Origin: Clostridia bacterium | GTDB taxonomy: Bacteria > Bacillota > Clostridia > UMGS1883 > UMGS1540 | Direction: 5' to 3' | Length of the DNA: 64,000 bases | Assembly: GCA_045656005.1 (NCBI GenBank) | Contig: JAZOQG010000003.1 | Span: forward strand, 2,226-66,225 | Part shown: positions 29,672-63,934 of the stretch, piece after piece | Layout of the letters: the number at the start of each line of letters is the position of its first letter | How positions within the stretch are numbered: the stretch's first letter is position 1 | Program-made: the position numbers and the translations under genes | Notes under the pieces: model-generated | The model's database searches: none | Seen by the model: only the letters and a program-made list of their open reading frames with translations | Told to the model about the DNA's origin: nothing

Positions 29672-30934
29672 TTATTTTTTTATTTTATCCCAATATTCTT
29701 TTGTTGCAGTTTCAATTTTATTAGTGCCATATTTATAGTATTTTTTATCTTTTATCTTATCGGGCAAATACTGTTGTTTTACATAGTGACCCGGAAATGC
29801 GTGAGGATATTTATACTCTGTTCCTCTGCCTATCTTTGCAGCACCGCTATAGTGAGCATCTTTAAGATGCTGAGGGATATCTCCGCATTCGCTTTTTCTC
29901 ACATCATCAAGTGCTGCCCATATAGCCTCAGCTGCTGAATTTGATTTCGGGGCTGTTGCAAGCAAAATTGTAGCCTCCGAAAGGGGCAACACGGCTTCTG
30001 GGAAGCCTACCTGAAAAGCACTGTCAACACATGCTTTAACAACGGAAATTGCAGTAGGGTGTGCAAGGCCTATATCCTCTGCTGCTATAACTACAAGACG
30101 GCGGCAGATAGAGATTAAATCTCCACCTTCGCAAAGCCTTGCAAGGTAATGGACTGCCGCATCAGGGTCACTCCCCCTGATGGACTTTTGAAAAGCACTT
30201 AAGATATCATAGTGGCTATCACCGTCACGGTCATAGCGAAAGGCTTTTTTGGAAGTACATCCTTCAAGGGTTTCTATTGTAATATTTATATTTCCGTCTT
30301 TATCCGAGAGGGTGCTTATTGCCGCAACTTCCAAAGTGCCGATTGCTTTTCTTACATCACCACCGCATGATGTTGCAATAAAAGAAAGAGCATCATCTGA
30401 AATTGAGAGGGGCATCCCGTCACTTTTTAAAATATCAATACTGCGGCGAAGCGCTTTTTCTATTTCTTCTGACGGAACTTCTTTAAATTCAAACACAGTT
30501 GAGCGTGACAAAATCGCATTATAAATATAGAAGTATGGATTTTCCGTTGTACTTGCAATCAAAGTTATTTTTCCGTTTTCGATAAACTCCAGAAGAGACT
30601 GTTGTTGTTTCTTATTAAAATTTTGTATCTCGTCAAGATAGAGCAAAACTCCATCCATTCCGTCAAATCCGTTAAGGTCTGAAATAATTGTTTTGATATC
30701 GGAAACCGATGCATTTGTTGCATTAAGTTTATAAAGTTTCTTCCCGCATTTTTTTGCCGCAATATTTGCAACCGTTGTCTTTCCTGTACCCGAAGGACCA
30801 TAGAAAATCATGTTAGGGATTGTTCCGCTTTCGATTATTTTTCTCAAAATACCAGTTTCGGACAACAGATGCTGTTGTCCGAAAACTTCTGATAAGCTTT
30901 GAGGCCTTATACGGTCTGCTAAAGGTTTGTTCAT
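29672..30934 (-). CDS. rarA: Replication-associated recombination protein A (RarA/MgsA AAA+ ATPase)
   Basis: LADRIRPQSLSEVFGQQHLL, Walker A GPSGTGKTT, 420 aa. Confidence 0.85.
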   Translation of the reverse strand: MNKPLADRIRPQSLSEVFGQQHLLSETGILRKIIESGTIPNMIFYGPSGTGKTTVANIAAKKCGKKLYKLNATNASVSDIKTIISDLNGFDGMDGVLLYLDEIQNFNKKQQQSLLEFIENGKITLIASTTENPYFYIYNAILSRSTVFEFKEVPSEEIEKALRRSIDILKSDGMPLSISDDALSFIATSCGGDVRKAIGTLEVAAISTLSDKDGNINITIETLEGCTSKKAFRYDRDGDSHYDILSAFQKSIRGSDPDAAVHYLARLCEGGDLISICRRLVVIAAEDIGLAHPTAISVVKACVDSAFQVGFPEAVLPLSEATILLATAPKSNSAAEAIWAALDDVRKSECGDIPQHLKDAHYSGAAKIGRGTEYKYPHAFPGHYVKQQYLPDKIKDKKYYKYGTNKIETATKEYWDKIKK

Positions 30935-30961
30935 AAGCTCACCTTACTTTAATACTAACTG

Positions 30962-31053
30962 ATTGGGGAATAGGGAAAAATGTTCAGAACGGACAAACTG
31001 AAACGAAGCTGTATATAGATACTGCGATGTTGAAGTTTGTTCGTAGCAAAAAG
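30962..31053 (+). repeat. Interspersed structured repeat, copy 1 (conserved 5' block ...CAGAACGGACAAACTGAA and 3' block GAAGTTTGTTCGTAGCAAAAAG)
   Basis: Near-identical to the reverse complement of 38691-38777. The termini can form a 10-bp stem (ACGGACAAAC / GUUUGUUCGU). Confidence 0.7.
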
Positions 31054-31180
31054 GCTTTAAATCTTAGAAAAATCGAACTTGGTGAGATTTTTCATCGAGG
31101 ATAGCACAACGATGGTTTTCTGCTATCAAAGTTTATCTTTTTCCAGCCTTTTTGCGGTCTGGACTTTTTTCTTCATTCCC

Positions 31181-32419
31181 TTATTTATACAAAGGATATT
31201 TTTCGCAAAGTGCTTTAACCCCTGCACGAACTTCGTCCGCTTTGTTTTCAAAATCAAATATTGTCATAGCAATAAGATGTGCAATTACTTCCATGTCTTC
31301 TTCTTTCATGCCGCGTGAAGTAACTGCGGGAGTACCGATTCTGATACCGCTTGTGATAAATGGGCTCTTTGTATCAAAAGGAATGGCATTTTTGTTACAT
31401 GTAATATTAACTTCATCCAAAAGTGCCTCAACCTCTTTACCTGTTTTGCCTGTGTCTGTAAGGTCAACGAGCATAAGATGGTTATCTGTTCCGCCTGAAA
31501 CAAGTTTTAAGCCTTCTTTAATAAATGCTTTTGCCAATGCATCAGCATTTTTAACAATCTGTTTCTGGTATTCTTTAAATTCATCAGAAAGTGCTTCTTT
31601 AAAGCAAACTGCTTTTGCGGCGATGATGTGCATTAAAGGTCCGCCCTGAATACCGGGGAATATAGCTTTATCAATAGCTTTTGCATGCTCTTCCTTACAA
31701 AGAATAAGACCACCACGCGGACCGCGGAGTGTTTTATGTGTTGTAGTTGTAACGAAGTCTGCATAAGGTACGGGATTTGGATGAAGACCTGCTGCAACAA
31801 GACCTGCAATATGTGCCATGTCAACGAGGAAGTATGCACCAACCTCTTTTGCAATTTCAGCAAACTTCTCAAAGTCGATTGTTCTTGAGTATGCACTTGC
31901 ACCTGCGAGGATAAGTTTTGGTTTATTTTCAATAGCAAGACGTCTGATTTCATCATAATCAATTTTGCCGTCTGCTTCGGAAACTCCGTAAGGAACAATA
32001 TTGAAGTATTTACCTGACATATTAACGGGGCTGCCGTGGCTTAAATGTCCGCCGTGTGCAAGGTTCATACTAAGCACTGTGTCGCCAGGGTTTAAAACTG
32101 CAAAAAATACTGCCATGTTAGCCTGTGCACCTGAGTGAGGCTGAACATTTGCATGGTCTGCACCAAAGATTTTGCAGGCTCTTTCGCGTGCCAAAGTTTC
32201 TACAACGTCTACATGTTCGCAACCGCCATAGTATCTTTTGCCGGGGTAACCCTCGGCATATTTGTTTGTAAGAGGTGTTCCCATAGCTTCCATAACCGCG
32301 GGACTTACAAAGTTTTCAGATGCAATAAGCTCAATTTTGTTCTGCTGACGTGAAAGCTCGTTTTCTATTGCAACTGCAACTTCGCTGTCAAACTTTTTGA
32401 TTTCATCAATATGTAACAA
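31181..32419 (-). CDS. glyA: Serine hydroxymethyltransferase
   Basis: 412 aa with an SHMT N-terminal signature ([39 protein letters not shown]) and the PLP-Lys region [14 protein letters not shown]. Confidence 0.9.
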
Positions 32420-32521
32420 AAAAATTCATCCTTTCAAAAAATAATAATATATTCTATTATACAGCTTTTTCTTTACTTTTTCAATAGTTTTTGATAAAAT
32501 TAATTCATGAGAGGTGTTTTT

Positions 32522-33154
32522 ATGACAAATAAGGAAAAATACAAAAAAATTCAGGAGATTTTTGACGAAATTTACAGTGATGCAGATTGTTCACTTGACT
32601 ATAAAAATCCATTTCATTTACTTGTTGCGGTTCAGCTTGCCGCGCAGTGCACAGATGCGAGAGTAAATATGGTAACACCAAAGCTATTTGAAATTTTACC
32701 CGACCCTAAGGCTTTTGCCGAAGCTGAGATTCCGCTTATTGAAGAGCTTATAAAATCAACGGGTTTTTATCACAATAAAGCTAAAAATTTAAAGGCATGT
32801 GCAAAAAGGCTTCTGGAAGAATTTGATGGAGAGGTTCCTGATAATATGGACGACCTTTTAAGTCTTCCGGGAGTAGGGAGAAAAACTGCAAATCTTATTA
32901 TGGGCGATGTTTTCCATAAAGGCGGAGTTGTGGTTGACACGCATTGCAAGAGAATAACGAAAAAGATTGGGTTTACAAAAAATGATGACCCGACAAAGGT
33001 TGAATTTGATTTGATAAAAATAATTCCAAAGGAAAATCAGTCCCGTTTTTGCCATCAGATTGTGTGGCACGGGAGAGAAATATGTATTGCAAGAAGACCT
33101 AAATGCATGGAGTGTCCCATAAGGGAGTATTGCAAAGAGGGTATGAAGTTATAG
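32522..33154 (+). CDS. nth: Endonuclease III (DNA-(apurinic/apyrimidinic site) lyase)
   Basis: HhH-GPD motif LPGVGRKTANLIMG and a C-terminal 4Fe-4S cluster CxxxxxxCxxCxxxxxC (CIARRPKCMECPIREYC). Confidence 0.85.
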   Translation: MTNKEKYKKIQEIFDEIYSDADCSLDYKNPFHLLVAVQLAAQCTDARVNMVTPKLFEILPDPKAFAEAEIPLIEELIKSTGFYHNKAKNLKACAKRLLEEFDGEVPDNMDDLLSLPGVGRKTANLIMGDVFHKGGVVVDTHCKRITKKIGFTKNDDPTKVEFDLIKIIPKENQSRFCHQIVWHGREICIARRPKCMECPIREYCKEGMKL

Positions 33155-33213
33155 TTTTTGTTGATATTTTAAAAACATCTGCCTGCTTTACAAGAGAGGC
33201 GGTTGTTCTTTTG

Positions 33214-33516
33214 TTATTTAAGACTTTCAATTTTTTCGTTTATTTCAAATCCCATTTTTATGCCCGAAAGCAAACCTATTTCAAAATATACTTCCTCGTA
33301 TATTGATGTCTGCTCATCAAAAAATGTTAAAATTTTATCAAGTTCTTCAGAATTGTGGAATTTGTTTTTGAAAAAATCTGTTATATTTTTATTTGCATCT
33401 CTAAGTCTTTGAGAATAAGAATGGGTGTCGGGTTTTACATAGCTTTCAACACCATATTTCAAAAAGGTTTGAATTGAGTATAAATCTGCACGTTTTAATA
33501 AGTTTTTAAAATCCAT
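33214..33516 (-). CDS. Hypothetical small helical protein (100 aa)
   Basis: ORF with a plausible RBS. No recognisable motif. Confidence 0.35.
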   Translation of the reverse strand: MDFKNLLKRADLYSIQTFLKYGVESYVKPDTHSYSQRLRDANKNITDFFKNKFHNSEELDKILTFFDEQTSIYEEVYFEIGLLSGIKMGFEINEKIESLK

Positions 33517-33721
33517 AAATATCGTACCTTTCTTTCGCAGAGTATATTTTTATGACGATGTAAGTATATCATATAATTTTTGAATTGTGTGGATTTATCT
33601 CAAATTGTGATATAAATTCTTTGGCAATGAAAGATTGATAAATATTTGTATCTCTACGAGGTGTGACTTTCGGCAGTCAAAAGAAAATTTTATAAAAACG
33701 TCAGTTTGTGCGATTATCGGG

Positions 33722-33829
33722 GGCGAAGAAAAAATAGTGCAGAACGGACAAACTGAACCAAGCGGAGCTTGGGTTAGCCGAAGGCGTACTAAAGTACGTC
33801 GAGAGGTGAAGTTTGTTCGTAGCATAAAG
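33722..33829 (+). repeat. Interspersed structured repeat, copy 3 (same conserved ends, different and longer core carrying two internal hairpins)
   Basis: 5' gaagaaaaaatagtgCAGAACGGACAAACTGAA, core ccaagc-gga-gcttgg and cgtac-taaa-gtacg, 3' GAAGTTTGTTCGTAGCATAAAG. Confidence 0.65.
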
Positions 33830-33842
33830 CAATTAAAATAAA

Positions 33843-33871
33843 AACATTCGCCAGAAAGCGAATGTTTTCTT
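33843..33871. terminator. Bidirectional rho-independent terminator
   Basis: aaaaacattcgc-cagaaa-gcgaatgtttt. Confidence 0.6.
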
Positions 33872-33949
33872 TAAATGGAAATTATCAAATAGAAATGCAC
33901 ATATATTAGGTCATGTATTAGTATTTGCTTTATGCGGTCTGTACATTTT

Positions 33950-34489
33950 TTAAAGCCCATAATATGCCCTGCTGCCGCCTATATATTTAGGTCTTGTTTT
34001 TGCAAAGGTTGTATGTGCCTGACCGATTTTATTTATGGAAAGACGAAGGGGAACTGCAACATGACGAAGGTGCATGCCTATAAAAGTATCGCCAATGTCA
34101 ATACCTGCGTGTGCTTTTACAAATTCAACAACTACAGGGTCTTTAAATTTTTTGTAAGCACTTGTTCCTGCAGAGCCACCTGCTTTAGGTTGAGGAATAA
34201 CAGAAACTATTTCAAGGCCATATCTTTCTGCGGCCTCTCTTTCAATTACAATTGCACGGTTTAAATGCTCACAGCATCCTACTGCAAGATATATTCCGCT
34301 TTCTCCGATTGCACTAAGAGCACCATCTATCACTTCGTCACCAAGCTCAAACACCGAGCCTTTGCCTATTTTATTTCCGGCTATTTCGCTTGTGGAACAA
34401 CCCATTATGAGTATTTCCCCGCTTTTTATACCGGATTCTTTTATAAGTTCATTGAGTGCAAATTTTACTTCATTTTGTATATTGTTCAT
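33950..34489 (-). CDS. UPF0340/DUF436-family protein (YwlG-like)
   Basis: 179 aa carrying GEILIMGCSTSEIAG and VGCCEHLNRA motifs typical of the UPF0340 family. Confidence 0.55.
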   Translation of the reverse strand: MNNIQNEVKFALNELIKESGIKSGEILIMGCSTSEIAGNKIGKGSVFELGDEVIDGALSAIGESGIYLAVGCCEHLNRAIVIEREAAERYGLEIVSVIPQPKAGGSAGTSAYKKFKDPVVVEFVKAHAGIDIGDTFIGMHLRHVAVPLRLSINKIGQAHTTFAKTRPKYIGGSRAYYGL

Positions 34490-37444: not shown

Positions 37445-38554
37445 ATGGCAAGCTTAAGCTTAAAAGGAATTTACAAAAGATACTCTGGCGGAGTTACCGC
37501 TGTAAGTGATTTTAACCTTGAAATCGAAGACAAAGAATTTATAATATTCGTTGGTCCTTCCGGTTGTGGTAAATCAACAACACTTCGTATGATTGCAGGT
37601 CTTGAAGAAATTTCGGAAGGTGAACTTTACATCGACGACAAACTCGTAAACGACATGGCTCCAAAGGACAGAGATATTGCGATGGTTTTCCAGAACTACG
37701 CTCTCTATCCTCACATGACAGTTTTCGAAAACATGGCATTCGGACTTAAACTTCGTAAAACTCCAAAGGATGAAATTAAGAGAAGAGTTGAAGAAGCAGC
37801 TAAAATTTTGGATATCGACCACCTTCTTGACAGAAAGCCAAAGGCTCTCTCCGGTGGTCAGCGTCAGAGGGTTGCGCTCGGTCGTGCAATCGTTCGTGAA
37901 CCTAAGGTATTCCTTATGGACGAACCTTTATCAAACCTCGATGCTAAACTTCGTGTACAGATGAGAACAGAAATCGGTAAGCTTCACAAAAAGCTCCAGA
38001 CAACATTCATCTACGTAACACACGACCAGACAGAGGCTTTGACAATGGCTTCGCGTATCGTTGTTATGAAAGACGGTATCATTCAGCAGGTTGCAGCTCC
38101 TCAGGAACTTTATGATAATCCTTCAAACGTATTCGTTGCAGGCTTTATCGGTTCACCTCAGATGAACTTCATCGATGCTGACATCGTTGAAGAAGACGGC
38201 AAAATCAACCTTGTATTCGGAACTCAGAAGGTTACACTTCCTGAAGGCAAGGCTGCAAAACTTGACAAGGCTTACATCGGTCAGAAAGTTATACTCGGTA
38301 TTCGTCCTGAAGACCTTTATGATGACGAGGCTTATATCGCAGCAGCTCCTGATTGTGTAATTGATGCAGAAGTAACAATTACTGAAATGATGGGTGCTGA
38401 AACATATCTTTACATGGATGTTGAGGGTAAACAGTGCGTTGCAAGAGTTAACCCAAGAACAACAACAAAAGCAGGCGACAAGATTAAGCTCGCATTTGAT
38501 GGTAATAAAATCCACATCTTTGACAAAGATACTGAATACGCAGTACTTAACTAA
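37445..38554 (+). CDS. msmX: Sugar ABC transporter ATP-binding protein (MsmX/MalK-like)
   Basis: Walker A GPSGCGKST, signature LSGGQRQRVALGRAIV, and a C-terminal TOBE/MalK regulatory domain. Confidence 0.85.
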   Translation: MASLSLKGIYKRYSGGVTAVSDFNLEIEDKEFIIFVGPSGCGKSTTLRMIAGLEEISEGELYIDDKLVNDMAPKDRDIAMVFQNYALYPHMTVFENMAFGLKLRKTPKDEIKRRVEEAAKILDIDHLLDRKPKALSGGQRQRVALGRAIVREPKVFLMDEPLSNLDAKLRVQMRTEIGKLHKKLQTTFIYVTHDQTEALTMASRIVVMKDGIIQQVAAPQELYDNPSNVFVAGFIGSPQMNFIDADIVEEDGKINLVFGTQKVTLPEGKAAKLDKAYIGQKVILGIRPEDLYDDEAYIAAAPDCVIDAEVTITEMMGAETYLYMDVEGKQCVARVNPRTTTKAGDKIKLAFDGNKIHIFDKDTEYAVLN

Positions 38555-38653
38555 CATTAAAATCAAGCGGAAATGTAAAAAAGTCCAGACCGCAAAAAGC
38601 AAAATAAATTTATTAATTTTATTTGCGCATGATATTATTTATAGTGTATAGTG

Positions 38654-38681
38654 AAAACATCCGCATCAGCGGATGTTTTTC
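38654..38681. terminator. Bidirectional rho-independent terminator
   Basis: aaaacatccgc-atca-gcggatgttttt. Confidence 0.6.
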
Positions 38682-38690
38682 TTTTATATG

Positions 38691-38777
38691 CTTTTTGCTA
38701 CGAACAAACTTCAACATCGCAGTATCTATATACAGCTTCGTTTCAGTTTGTCCGTTCTGAAACATTTTTCCTATTCC
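38691..38777 (-). repeat. Interspersed structured repeat, copy 2 (reverse complement of copy 1, near-identical including the core)
   Basis: ctttttgctacgaacaaacttcaacatcgcagtatctatatacagcttcgtttcagtttgtccgttctgaa matches the rc of 30985-31053 almost exactly. Confidence 0.7.
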
Positions 38778-38783
38778 CTTTGT

Positions 38784-42527: not shown

Positions 42528-42570
42528 CAATGAAAAGCAGGGTGTAAAAAAGAGTTTTTTTACACCCTCT
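42528..42570 (+). terminator. Rho-independent terminator after rpsR
   Basis: ggtgtaaaaaa-gag-tttttttacacc. Confidence 0.6.
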
Positions 42571-42629
42571 TGTTTATTACGTTTCTTGCCCTTTGTGGTC
42601 TGGACTTTTTTACATTCCATTATGAGTTT

Positions 42630-63462: not shown

Positions 63463-63542
63463 CTGCGAGGCCGTTGGGGTTGAAGGGGGAATCGGAACCC
63501 CCTTCGTTTTGGTGACTTTTGCGCCAAAAGTCACACCTCGTA
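63463..63542 (+). ncRNA. Candidate structured RNA element (three-way junction: closing stem plus two perfect hairpins)
   Basis: Closing stem cgagg/cctcg. Hairpin 1 gaaggggg-aatcggaa-cccccttc. Hairpin 2 gtgacttttg-cgc-caaaagtcac (10 bp). Lies inside a weak 177-aa ORF of low-complexity hydrophobic sequence. Confidence 0.3.
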
Positions 63543-63934
63543 GAGAAAGAATAAAAAAATATTGGCAAAAACAAAAGTTTGGTATTTGTGACTTGTTTTG
63601 CCTTTTTGTGATCTGTGCATTTTATCAAGCCCTTTTACATTATTTTTTCTCTTCGTCTATGCTTTCCCCATCCCATATACTGTCAAGCTTCATTTTATGT
63701 GTCATTTCAGGGTTTTCATGTTCCATTTGTGCATTATGGTATTTCGGGAGATTAATATTTCTTGGGTCTTTGCCTTTTGCCTGTTTTTTCAAAAAAATCA
63801 CCATCCTTATAAATTAGTATATCAACTTTTAGGAGAATTTTGCATTAAAATTTAATTTTTTTGGAAGGGTTTTGGGAAATGTTGTTGAATACATATTAAG
63901 AATACATATTTTGTAATTTGGAGGTTTAGTACAA

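Follow-up and report, generated by a model that had tools for sequence, protein, structure and literature searches.

What kind of sequence keeps its two ends from copy to copy when its interior looks as if it had been swapped? The question is raised by positions 33722–33829 of a 64,000-nucleotide stretch of DNA from an uncultured Clostridia bacterium (GenBank assembly GCA_045656005.1, contig JAZOQG010000003.1; the whole 64-kb stretch is called the window below). In a preliminary description, made from the letters alone, these positions were the third copy of a repeat family with common termini and a different, doubly hairpinned core, reminiscent of integron attC-like recombination sites or of a cloverleaf-like RNA. 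The analysis reported here points elsewhere: with a probability of roughly 0.6, copy 3 is a member of a non-coding, non-autonomous mobile family resembling MITEs (miniature transposable elements with inverted repeats) and repetitive extragenic palindromic (REP) sequences, tolerated by its hosts and perhaps useful to them as a portable 3′-end or terminator module. The family appears to have been undescribed until now; full-text literature searches returned general MITE and REP papers, none of them describing it.

Extent and fold of the repeat unit

The common terminal blocks of the three copies are borne out by exact matches. Copies 1 to 3 all carry the block CAGAACGGACAAACTGAA, at 30985 (+), 33740 (+) and 38759 (−), when 0.09 occurrences are expected by chance in the window, and all carry the block GAAGTTTGTTCGTAGCA(A/T)AAAG, at 31032 (+), 33808 (+) and 38712 (−), for an expectation of 0. 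The A-rich 5′ flank attributed to copy 3 is there as well. A further conserved block, TTGCTTT(T/A)TGCGGTCTG(G/T)AC(T/A)TTTTT, lies 91–97 nucleotides (nt) 3′ of every window copy and pairs with the left module. The 108 bases at 33722–33829 are this left module alone, and the full unit measures about 215–245 nt; the length of 70–90 nt first assigned to the repeats covers the left module only, the real unit being about three times bigger.

When the three window regions were extended and folded, the same architecture came out of each, with z-scores of −7.7, −7.5 and −6.6. The element ends, which read GGGAUAGGAAAAAA...UUUUUUACAUCCC, form a long closing helix, P1, in which the A-rich 5′ flank and GUUCAGA are paired with UCUGGAC, a U-run and an outer CCC. 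Inside P1 opens a three-way junction with two arms: P2, closed by ACGGACAAACU/AGUUUGUUCGU, and P3 (GCAAAAAGG/CCUUUUUGC), which encloses the hairpin P4 and a spacer. In copy 3 the modules follow each other in the order P1 5′ strand, P2 arm, P3 5′ strand, P4 hairpin, spacer, P3 3′ strand and P1 3′ strand.

The whole unit of copy 3 occupies 33719–33958 on the + strand (nhmmer match 33719–33960, E 3.8e-51; fold of 33715–33965 at −83.3 kcal/mol, z −7.5) and was aligned with 75 other units. Its P1 5′ strand (GGGC..AAAAAAU.GUGCAGA, 33721–33743, +) pairs with 33938–33958, a pairing found family-wide and including compensatory outer pairs. The two P2 strands, ACGGACAAACU at 33744–33754 (+) and AGUUUGUUCGU at 33810–33820 (+), pair with each other and lie within the left and the right terminal block of the first description, respectively. 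The P3 5′ strand (GCAUAAAGCAA, 33822–33832, +) pairs with 33925–33935; when copy 3 is compared with copies 1 and 2, an A-to-U change in this strand is matched by a U-to-A change in its partner. After P4 (33840–33869) comes a fast-evolving spacer (33870–33924, +), homologous within subfamilies only, and then the right module (33925–33958, +), made of the P3 3′ strand (UUGCUUUAUGC), GG and the P1 3′ strand (UCUGUAC AUUUUUU AAA GCCC). The stop codon of a DUF436 gene (33950–34489, −) falls inside this last strand (TAA, 33950–33952, −; listed at +11), so that the element overlaps the end of the gene.

Both hairpins noticed first in the core of copy 3 are present. One of them, ccaagc-gga-gcttgg (33758–33772, +), is an optional hairpin, P2a, which is missing from window copies 1 and 2; most family members have one, of varied sequence. 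The other, cgtac-taaa-gtacg within 33783–33800, belongs to the arm P2b (33777–33807, +), built of GCC, a GAA internal loop, GGCGUAC-UAAA-GUACGUC, GAGA and GGU. This hairpin and its flanking CCGAAG...CGAGAGG have their homologue in the one hairpin that the cores of copies 1 and 2 contain, and it was a mistake to call the interior of copy 3 unrelated. Its stem has changed by compensation (GCGUAC/GUACGY, in copy 3 GCGUAC/GUACGU, versus CUGUAU/AUACWG, in copies 1 and 2 CUGUAU/AUACUG); across the family the loop sequences CCGAAG and CGAGAGG are near-invariant, and the stem pairs CG/GC/GU and CG/UA alternate. At 50 nt versus 29 nt in copies 1 and 2, the core of copy 3 is longer by 21 nt and not by 17 nt. 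By the consensus of the aligned units, copy 3 is the mainstream form, and copies 1 (30965–31180, +) and 2 (38569–38778, −) are a minimal form without P2a. Copy 1 lies between the stop of glyA (31181–31183, −) and the start of mgsA (30934, −), copy 2 between the stop of a low-molecular-weight phosphatase gene (38784) and that of a MalK-like gene (38552–38554). Elsewhere in the family, the P2b loop of five loci (L003, L023, L116, L028 and L046) holds structured insertions of 180–280 nt without a match in Rfam; the insertion is identical in L003 and L023, which belong to one genome, and these may be nested small elements or a long subfamily.

A terminator had been placed just downstream of the repeat. 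The hairpin at 33840–33869 does score as one, and it is not downstream but inside the element, as P4. In copy 3 it passes a terminator scan with an A-tract, a GC-containing hairpin of 13 pairs and a T-tract, resembles a bidirectional intrinsic terminator and is terminator-like on the − strand, about 80 nt past the DUF436 stop; it is predicted to be the DUF436 terminator. The equivalent hairpin of copy 2 stands between two convergent genes. P4 is AU-rich and weaker in many family members, and it is weak in copy 1, which lies within the glyA-mgsA operon at a distance of 30 nt from the start of mgsA and so must be read through. Another terminator-like sequence of the window, a perfect 13-bp hairpin with a T-rich tail (30856–30884, −), was seen about 50 nt inside the mgsA-like coding sequence.

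Searches for known families and genes gave the following picture. With Rfam 15, used in gathering-score and in E-value mode, the element drew no match, neither in the window nor in 8 loci, the best E-value-mode matches covering the terminator only, and a known RNA family was rejected on this account. ARAGORN was negative at the element, and ARAGORN and Rfam gave only tRNA-Arg (42630) and tRNA-Met (53361) in the window; the element is not tRNA-like or cloverleaf-like, and a tRNA-derived element was rejected. A phage or plasmid origin was rejected as BLAST gave no match. A single exact match to the 18-mer used below as search key occurs in a viral contig collection (L201, IMGVR_UViG_3300029860_000340, 2821–2838) and could be a prophage border or chance. 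Finally, a small peptide gene (AGGAAAAAATG...) was considered and rejected, since indels of 1 nt just past the ATG leave no conserved frame between copies: the variants ATGTT, ATGTTT and ATGCTT shift the reading frame, and the element is therefore not coding.

A family selected as one folded strand

To collect the family, species-representative genomes were scanned with an 18-mer as key. The scan gave at least 116 loci, nearly all of them in metagenome-assembled genomes from gut or rumen named as Clostridia bacterium or as Oscillospiraceae, with about 40 assemblies among 80 listed titles and often several copies per assembly; about a dozen matches in unrelated phyla came without any other block and are chance matches. 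In these loci nhmmer found 148 matches, and 76 full units (window copy 3 and the 75 others) were aligned. Across the family the unit is 205–260 nt long, with the distance from P2 to the right block held at about 117–123 nt. Just left of the copies in L004 (3420–3460), L105 and L071 stands a perfect hairpin, GGAGCTGTAAAAAA-n-TTTTTTACAGCTCC, which amounts to two copies of the element's outer end and travels with one subfamily (three unrelated loci, three species).

The first description had called for a test of pairing and covariation in the termini, and the outcome is positive: the terminal blocks pair, and they covary in copies elsewhere. On the 76-unit alignment, 41 named pairs were compared with 500 partner shuffles and, as a control, with partners slid by 1–3 columns. 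Paired cells reached 94.8% versus 85.5% after shuffling, with none of the 500 shuffles as high, and the covariation score was 0.250 versus 0.086; slid partners paired at 37–49%. Changes on both sides were found in 21 pairs, including all 10 pairs of P3. P2 is invariant in this set because it was the search key, and it does covary in copies found incidentally (ACGG/UCGU to AUGG/UCAU, AUUGAAC/GUUCAAA, AUGUGC/GCGCAU, AUUCACG/CGUGGAU). The outermost P1 pairs change together as well (GGGGAU/AUCCCC, GGAGAU/AUCUCC, GGGGUUUG/CAACCCC, GGCACACAAA/UUUGUGUGCC).

These helices also tell which strand matters. In the well-aligned helices of 101 units placed on the columns of a hidden Markov model (HMM), G·U pairs number 292 and A·C pairs 25, an excess which argues that one strand is selected, the + strand in the case of copy 3. 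Beside CAGA/UCUG a wobble is kept (U·G in 49 units, G·U in 40, a Watson-Crick pair in 11), and the fourth P2 pair is G·U in 88 of the 101 units. In 72 of 76 units the forward strand folds more stably than the complementary one (−78.0 versus −67.5 kcal/mol), and it also exceeds its shuffled sequences by more (z −7.1 versus −5.8). The fold of one single strand is thus under selection, kept by compensatory changes and by G·U rather than A·C, and the original idea of termini that pair and are conserved, set around a structured core that varies, was right in spirit.

A branched fold conserved on one strand would suit a family of small-RNA genes, in which each copy gives an RNA of roughly 130–150 nt (P1 5′ strand, P2 arm and P3 5′ strand) ending at P4 and acting in trans or binding a protein. 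P4 with its U-tract comes right after the conserved arm, the upstream gene reads into the element in 40 of 68 cases, and in 7 cases a solitary right module lies 2–12 nt upstream of a full copy. Such genes are an improbable explanation, given that P1 and P3 covary though their 3′ strands lie beyond P4, that copies are gained and lost between close relatives, and that upstream flanks are unrelated and hold no conserved promoter, for which copy 1 would not even have room. A promoter for a separate forward transcript was found neither upstream of copy 3 nor within the solitary right module that precedes tRNA-Arg.

Filled and empty sites at the ends of genes

The spacer between glyA and mgsA, 246 nt long in the window, holds copy 1. 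The same site is empty in L117/L118 (GlyA 95% identical, 9-nt spacer), in L119/L120 (GlyA 89% identical, 17-nt spacer) and in L202 (GlyA 98% identical, 20-nt spacer), and it is filled in L203 (GlyA 99%, about 94% nucleotide identity), whose contig ends inside the element. At the DUF436 site, the full copy of the window is accompanied by about 560 nt with an open reading frame (ORF) of 100 aa and of no known family; in L203 the copy is cut at the P2 3′ strand and runs straight into the nth flank, with ACAAACT as microhomology at the junction, and in L204 a gap of 31 nt holds no element. Most orthologues of the DUF436 locus from metagenomes are distant (51–59% identity) and without it. As five further filled/empty pairs were found among the loci and the same sites are empty in close relatives, the element is mobile. 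What moves is the entire unit: empty glyA|mgsA sites of 9–20 nt imply that all 216 nt of copy 1 arrived together, and the finding of spacers that are homologous within subfamilies (72–92% identity) at loci with non-homologous flanks implies that the whole unit spreads. On these two grounds the idea was dropped that spacer and P4 are a native terminator caught between two separate insertions. Compared with window positions 29706–32526, L202 is 94% identical at the nucleotide level in glyA and only 83% in the adjoining mgsA, so that a recombination breakpoint coincides with the insertion site of the element. The stretch of about 560 nt beside copy 3 (33160–33715), with its ORF (33214–33516, −; no Pfam family) and its own promoter-like and terminator-like sites, is missing between DUF436 and nth in close relatives (gaps of 124 nt in L203 and 31 nt in L204) and seems to have come in together with copy 3 or beside it.

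The sites themselves have a common character. A long ORF stops within −23 to +12 nt of the element end at 94 of 119 right ends, and within ±3 nt at 50; at 17 right ends, copy 3 among them, the element's own end supplies the TAA or TGA stop. All three stop codons occur, the flank being TAA, TAG or TGA followed by 0–3 variable nt. The left end is not anchored, its neighbour lying mostly a few nt to about 250 nt away and sometimes 350–750 nt. With each element taken in its forward orientation, 64 of 72 downstream neighbours lie on the opposite strand and are hence convergent. The element sits in the few untranslated bases past a stop codon, and the first description is to be corrected in that it is antisense to the gene that it touches. 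Flush right ends are partly expected because the available sites are tiny gaps (a 9–33-nt operon junction, even an ATGA overlap, or a stop-to-terminator stretch); the orientation bias is not explained by such gaps.

A position so close to coding sequences might mean that the copies are retained, whatever their origin, mainly as a cis-acting 3′-end device serving the host, either as a stable structure that begins at the stop codon and acts as terminator and 3′-exonuclease block, or through a REP-like stalling of ribosomes that tunes the upstream gene or operon polarity. Most copies have their right end a few nt from a stop codon and in one orientation, they follow highly used housekeeping genes, inside operons such as glyA|mgsA and beside glycolytic genes, their P4 is terminator-like, and orthologous copies are conserved like the flanking genes. 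The REP elements of E. coli offer a precedent, a published estimate being that 260 out of 496 lie no more than 15 nt away from a stop codon and stall ribosomes there (PMC12306157). We hold a host device of this kind to be possible and the foremost of the alternatives, though unlikely as the main reason for retention: the selected fold, with G·U rather than A·C, is on the strand antisense to the abutting gene, whose mRNA would have a weaker fold with A·C mismatches; the element is missing from the same sites in close relatives; and if P4 terminates, the left module is outside the transcript of the abutting gene.

The junctions and the relics are polar. In filled/empty pairs the right junction is flush and 12–27 unexplained extra bases appear at the left junction only; the source of the 21 extra bases at the left junction of copy 1 was sought in the window and the loci, and no second copy of them turned up. 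Among partial copies found incidentally, about 9–12 keep the right end and 0–1 the left only, with varying truncation points. A minority reading makes of this an RNA-mediated element, SINE-like (akin to short interspersed elements) or an RNA-guided parasite, and not a DNA-transposase MITE. The forward-strand RNA would be the active intermediate, and its copying into DNA would begin with the 3′ (right) end, at a break immediately past a stop codon, where transcription and translation uncouple; installation from that end would give flush right and ragged left junctions, 5′-truncated relics and the antisense orientation. One-strand selection, fixed wobbles and RNA-like motifs agree with it, as do the L203 copy cut at the P2 3′ strand and several solitary right modules that still abut a convergent stop codon. 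These polar features, with one-strand selection, keep RNA-mediated or otherwise polar copying alive, at a low probability that is below that of the host device and somewhat above that of small-RNA genes. No reverse transcriptase was seen in the window or near the copies and no forward-strand promoter was found, copy 1 having only 30 nt to the next start codon, and the search pattern biased the sampling of left modules. Deletion with selection for the gene-proximal end explains the polar features, right-only relics included, just as well, and the ACAAACT microhomology of L203 is typical of deletion.

Relics of this type are found in the window too. A full-unit HMM recovers only the three full copies there, and a right-module HMM adds two solitary right modules, one at 42586–42618 (+), between the rpsR terminator (42539–42568) and tRNA-Arg (42630), the other at 63598–63633 (+), where a convergent ORF, cut off by the end of the window, has its stop codon 7 nt away. 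No canonical promoter was detected for tRNA-Arg; the module at 42586–42618 reads TTGCCC-19 nt-TACATT and might double as a weak one. Two hairpins were seen upstream of the module at 63598–63633. A different repeat of 19 bases, AAGTCACACCTCGTAGAGA, is identical at 33651–33669 (−) and 63528–63546 (+), preceded each time by a GTGACTT...AAGTCAC hairpin; both adjoin an element copy, and the repeat is missing from all 204 fetched loci.

Mobility, retention and known systems

The features by which MITEs are recognised are largely present: the element is small, non-coding and dispersed in many copies (three full and two partial ones in the window), every unit has terminal inverted repeats in the form of the P1 arms (about 22–30 nt, imperfect), and orthologous sites are polymorphic for its presence. 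An autonomous partner insertion sequence (IS) with matching ends was found neither in the 64-kb window nor in about 800 kb of loci. If the element is indeed MITE/REP-like, an enzyme encoded elsewhere in the genome would recognise the folded single strand, as DNA or RNA, and copy or move it. With a bidirectional terminator and a stable 3′ structure of its own, the element would replace rather than destroy the 3′-end signals of a gene, copy 3 supplying the DUF436 terminator, and this is probably why insertions would survive in the gap between stop codon and terminator, or between stop codon and the next ribosome-binding site. The interior could look swapped as constraint is relaxed and different copies recombine through their conserved modules.

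Several observations weigh against this reading. No transposase, integrase, REP-associated tyrosine transposase (RAYT) or reverse transcriptase is encoded among the about 61 ORFs of the window, where the tyrosine recombinase or RAYT that the first description suggested looking for is accordingly missing, nor is any of these found among the gene families recurring near copies (pgk, tpi, nrdD, adhE, rpoD, mnmA, ABC, AraC). No consistent target-site duplication was seen: TTA/TTAA is enriched at both flanks, and one filled/empty pair of about six (L056 versus L088) has TAA at either end, the others having the extra bases on their left side. Between orthologous copies conservation is no lower than in the coding DNA beside them, which suggests a function at the level of the host. 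The way in which unpaired junction and loop nucleotides, fixed wobbles and an internal loop with tandem GA are conserved resembles a functional RNA more than repeats bound by a transposase. Lastly, orientation tracks the gene (64:8) over the GC skew, with which it correlates weakly (56:34), and this argues against a simple mechanism based on replication-coupled single-stranded DNA. All points considered, our ranking places the MITE/REP-like family first, followed by the host 3′-end device, the RNA-mediated element, the small-RNA genes and, in last place, the attC-like sites discussed below.

The genes around the window copies are glyA, mgsA, nth, DUF436, sipL, malK-like and ywlE-like, with synteny kept in relatives. 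A TnpB/omega-RNA or IS605 context was rejected, the neighbours of 412, 369 and 179 aa being GlyA, a MalK-like ATPase and DUF436 by Pfam.

If the MITE/REP-like reading is true, a large clade of uncultured gut and rumen Clostridia has an apparently unrecorded mobile family, with on the order of a hundred copies per genome, which rewrites the 3′ ends of housekeeping genes, splits operons (e.g., glyA|mgsA), supplies terminators and breaks metagenome assemblies, as where the contig of one relative stops within the element. Annotation would otherwise overlook the family or wrongly list its copies as small ORFs or small RNAs. More than 100 diverse copies also form an unusually clean natural data set on how compensatory change maintains a folded single strand, and one-strand selection, fixed wobbles and stop-codon anchoring pose the question of which enzyme moves the element and how gene ends are found.

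Among known systems, integron attC sites, which fold as single-stranded DNA and are recombined by an integron-type tyrosine recombinase, were the first to be proposed. They resemble the element in a single-strand fold conserved over sequence (here in P3 and outer P1), in strand specificity and in their location after genes, and the right-module/left-module junctions seen in tandem arrangements would fit such sites. The proposal nevertheless fails, and we regard it as very improbable. The R″/R′ core sites (RYYYAAC/GTTRRRY) are absent, the candidate strands GACAAAC and GTTTGTT violating the consensus; size and topology are those of a three-way junction of 215–245 nt and not of a bulged hairpin of 57–141 nt; there is no integrase in the 64 kb and no cassette array, the neighbours being syntenic housekeeping genes and not promoterless cassettes; and orientation tracks the gene, not replication. 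With the palindrome-associated transposable elements (PATEs) of the IS200/IS605 type, the element has in common that it is small and non-coding, that its hairpins are read on one DNA strand, that duplication is not obligatory and that insertion is orientation-specific. It differs from them in having mutually complementary ends, similar to terminal inverted repeats, in using any stop codon plus 0–3 nt in place of a fixed target of 4–5 nt at one end, in the weak correlation of its orientation with GC skew and in the absence of TnpA or TnpB nearby.

The BOX repeats of Streptococcus pneumoniae, the Correia (CREE) elements of Neisseria, and ERIC, RUP and bcr1 are non-coding mobile repeats of 100–250 bp with complementary ends forming a long stem. 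Repeats of the BOX type are modular (boxA-boxB-boxC), lie in transcribed intergenic DNA and can provide terminators, promoters or RNase III sites. The element shares their size, complementary ends, modular build and intergenic location. It has no sequence similarity to them and no TA or other fixed duplication was demonstrated in it; the invariant loop nucleotides and fixed wobbles of its conserved internal arm are unusual, and its strong antisense bias to the abutting stop codon sets it further apart.

REP sequences, with the mosaics (BIME) and REPIN forms built from them in E. coli and Pseudomonas and with RAYT (TnpA-REP) as their enzyme, are likewise extragenic, multi-copy palindromic DNA of conserved structure at gene 3′ ends, in many cases no further than about 15 nt from a stop codon (PMC12306157). 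They act as folded single strands and are gained and lost between strains; the GTAG that marks them precedes the P3 5′ strand of the element, on one side only. The element is five to ten times longer, a three-way junction compared with a hairpin of 20–40 nt or a hairpin doublet with a 5′ GTAG, has a predicted internal terminator (A-tract, hairpin, T-tract), comes without a RAYT of the Y1_Tnp type among the about 61 window ORFs or recurrent neighbours, and lives in uncultured Clostridia/Oscillospiraceae (Bacillota), not in Proteobacteria. Together, these comparisons indicate that the element lacks the tested defining features of attC sites, REP-RAYT systems and IS200/IS605 PATEs and has most of those of MITEs, the exceptions being a fixed duplication and a known partner. 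By analogy it probably works like REP/BIME, BOX, Correia and ERIC elements, and what is unusual in it is the branched fold with invariant loop nucleotides and fixed wobbles, the antisense anchoring at stop codons and the right-end relics.

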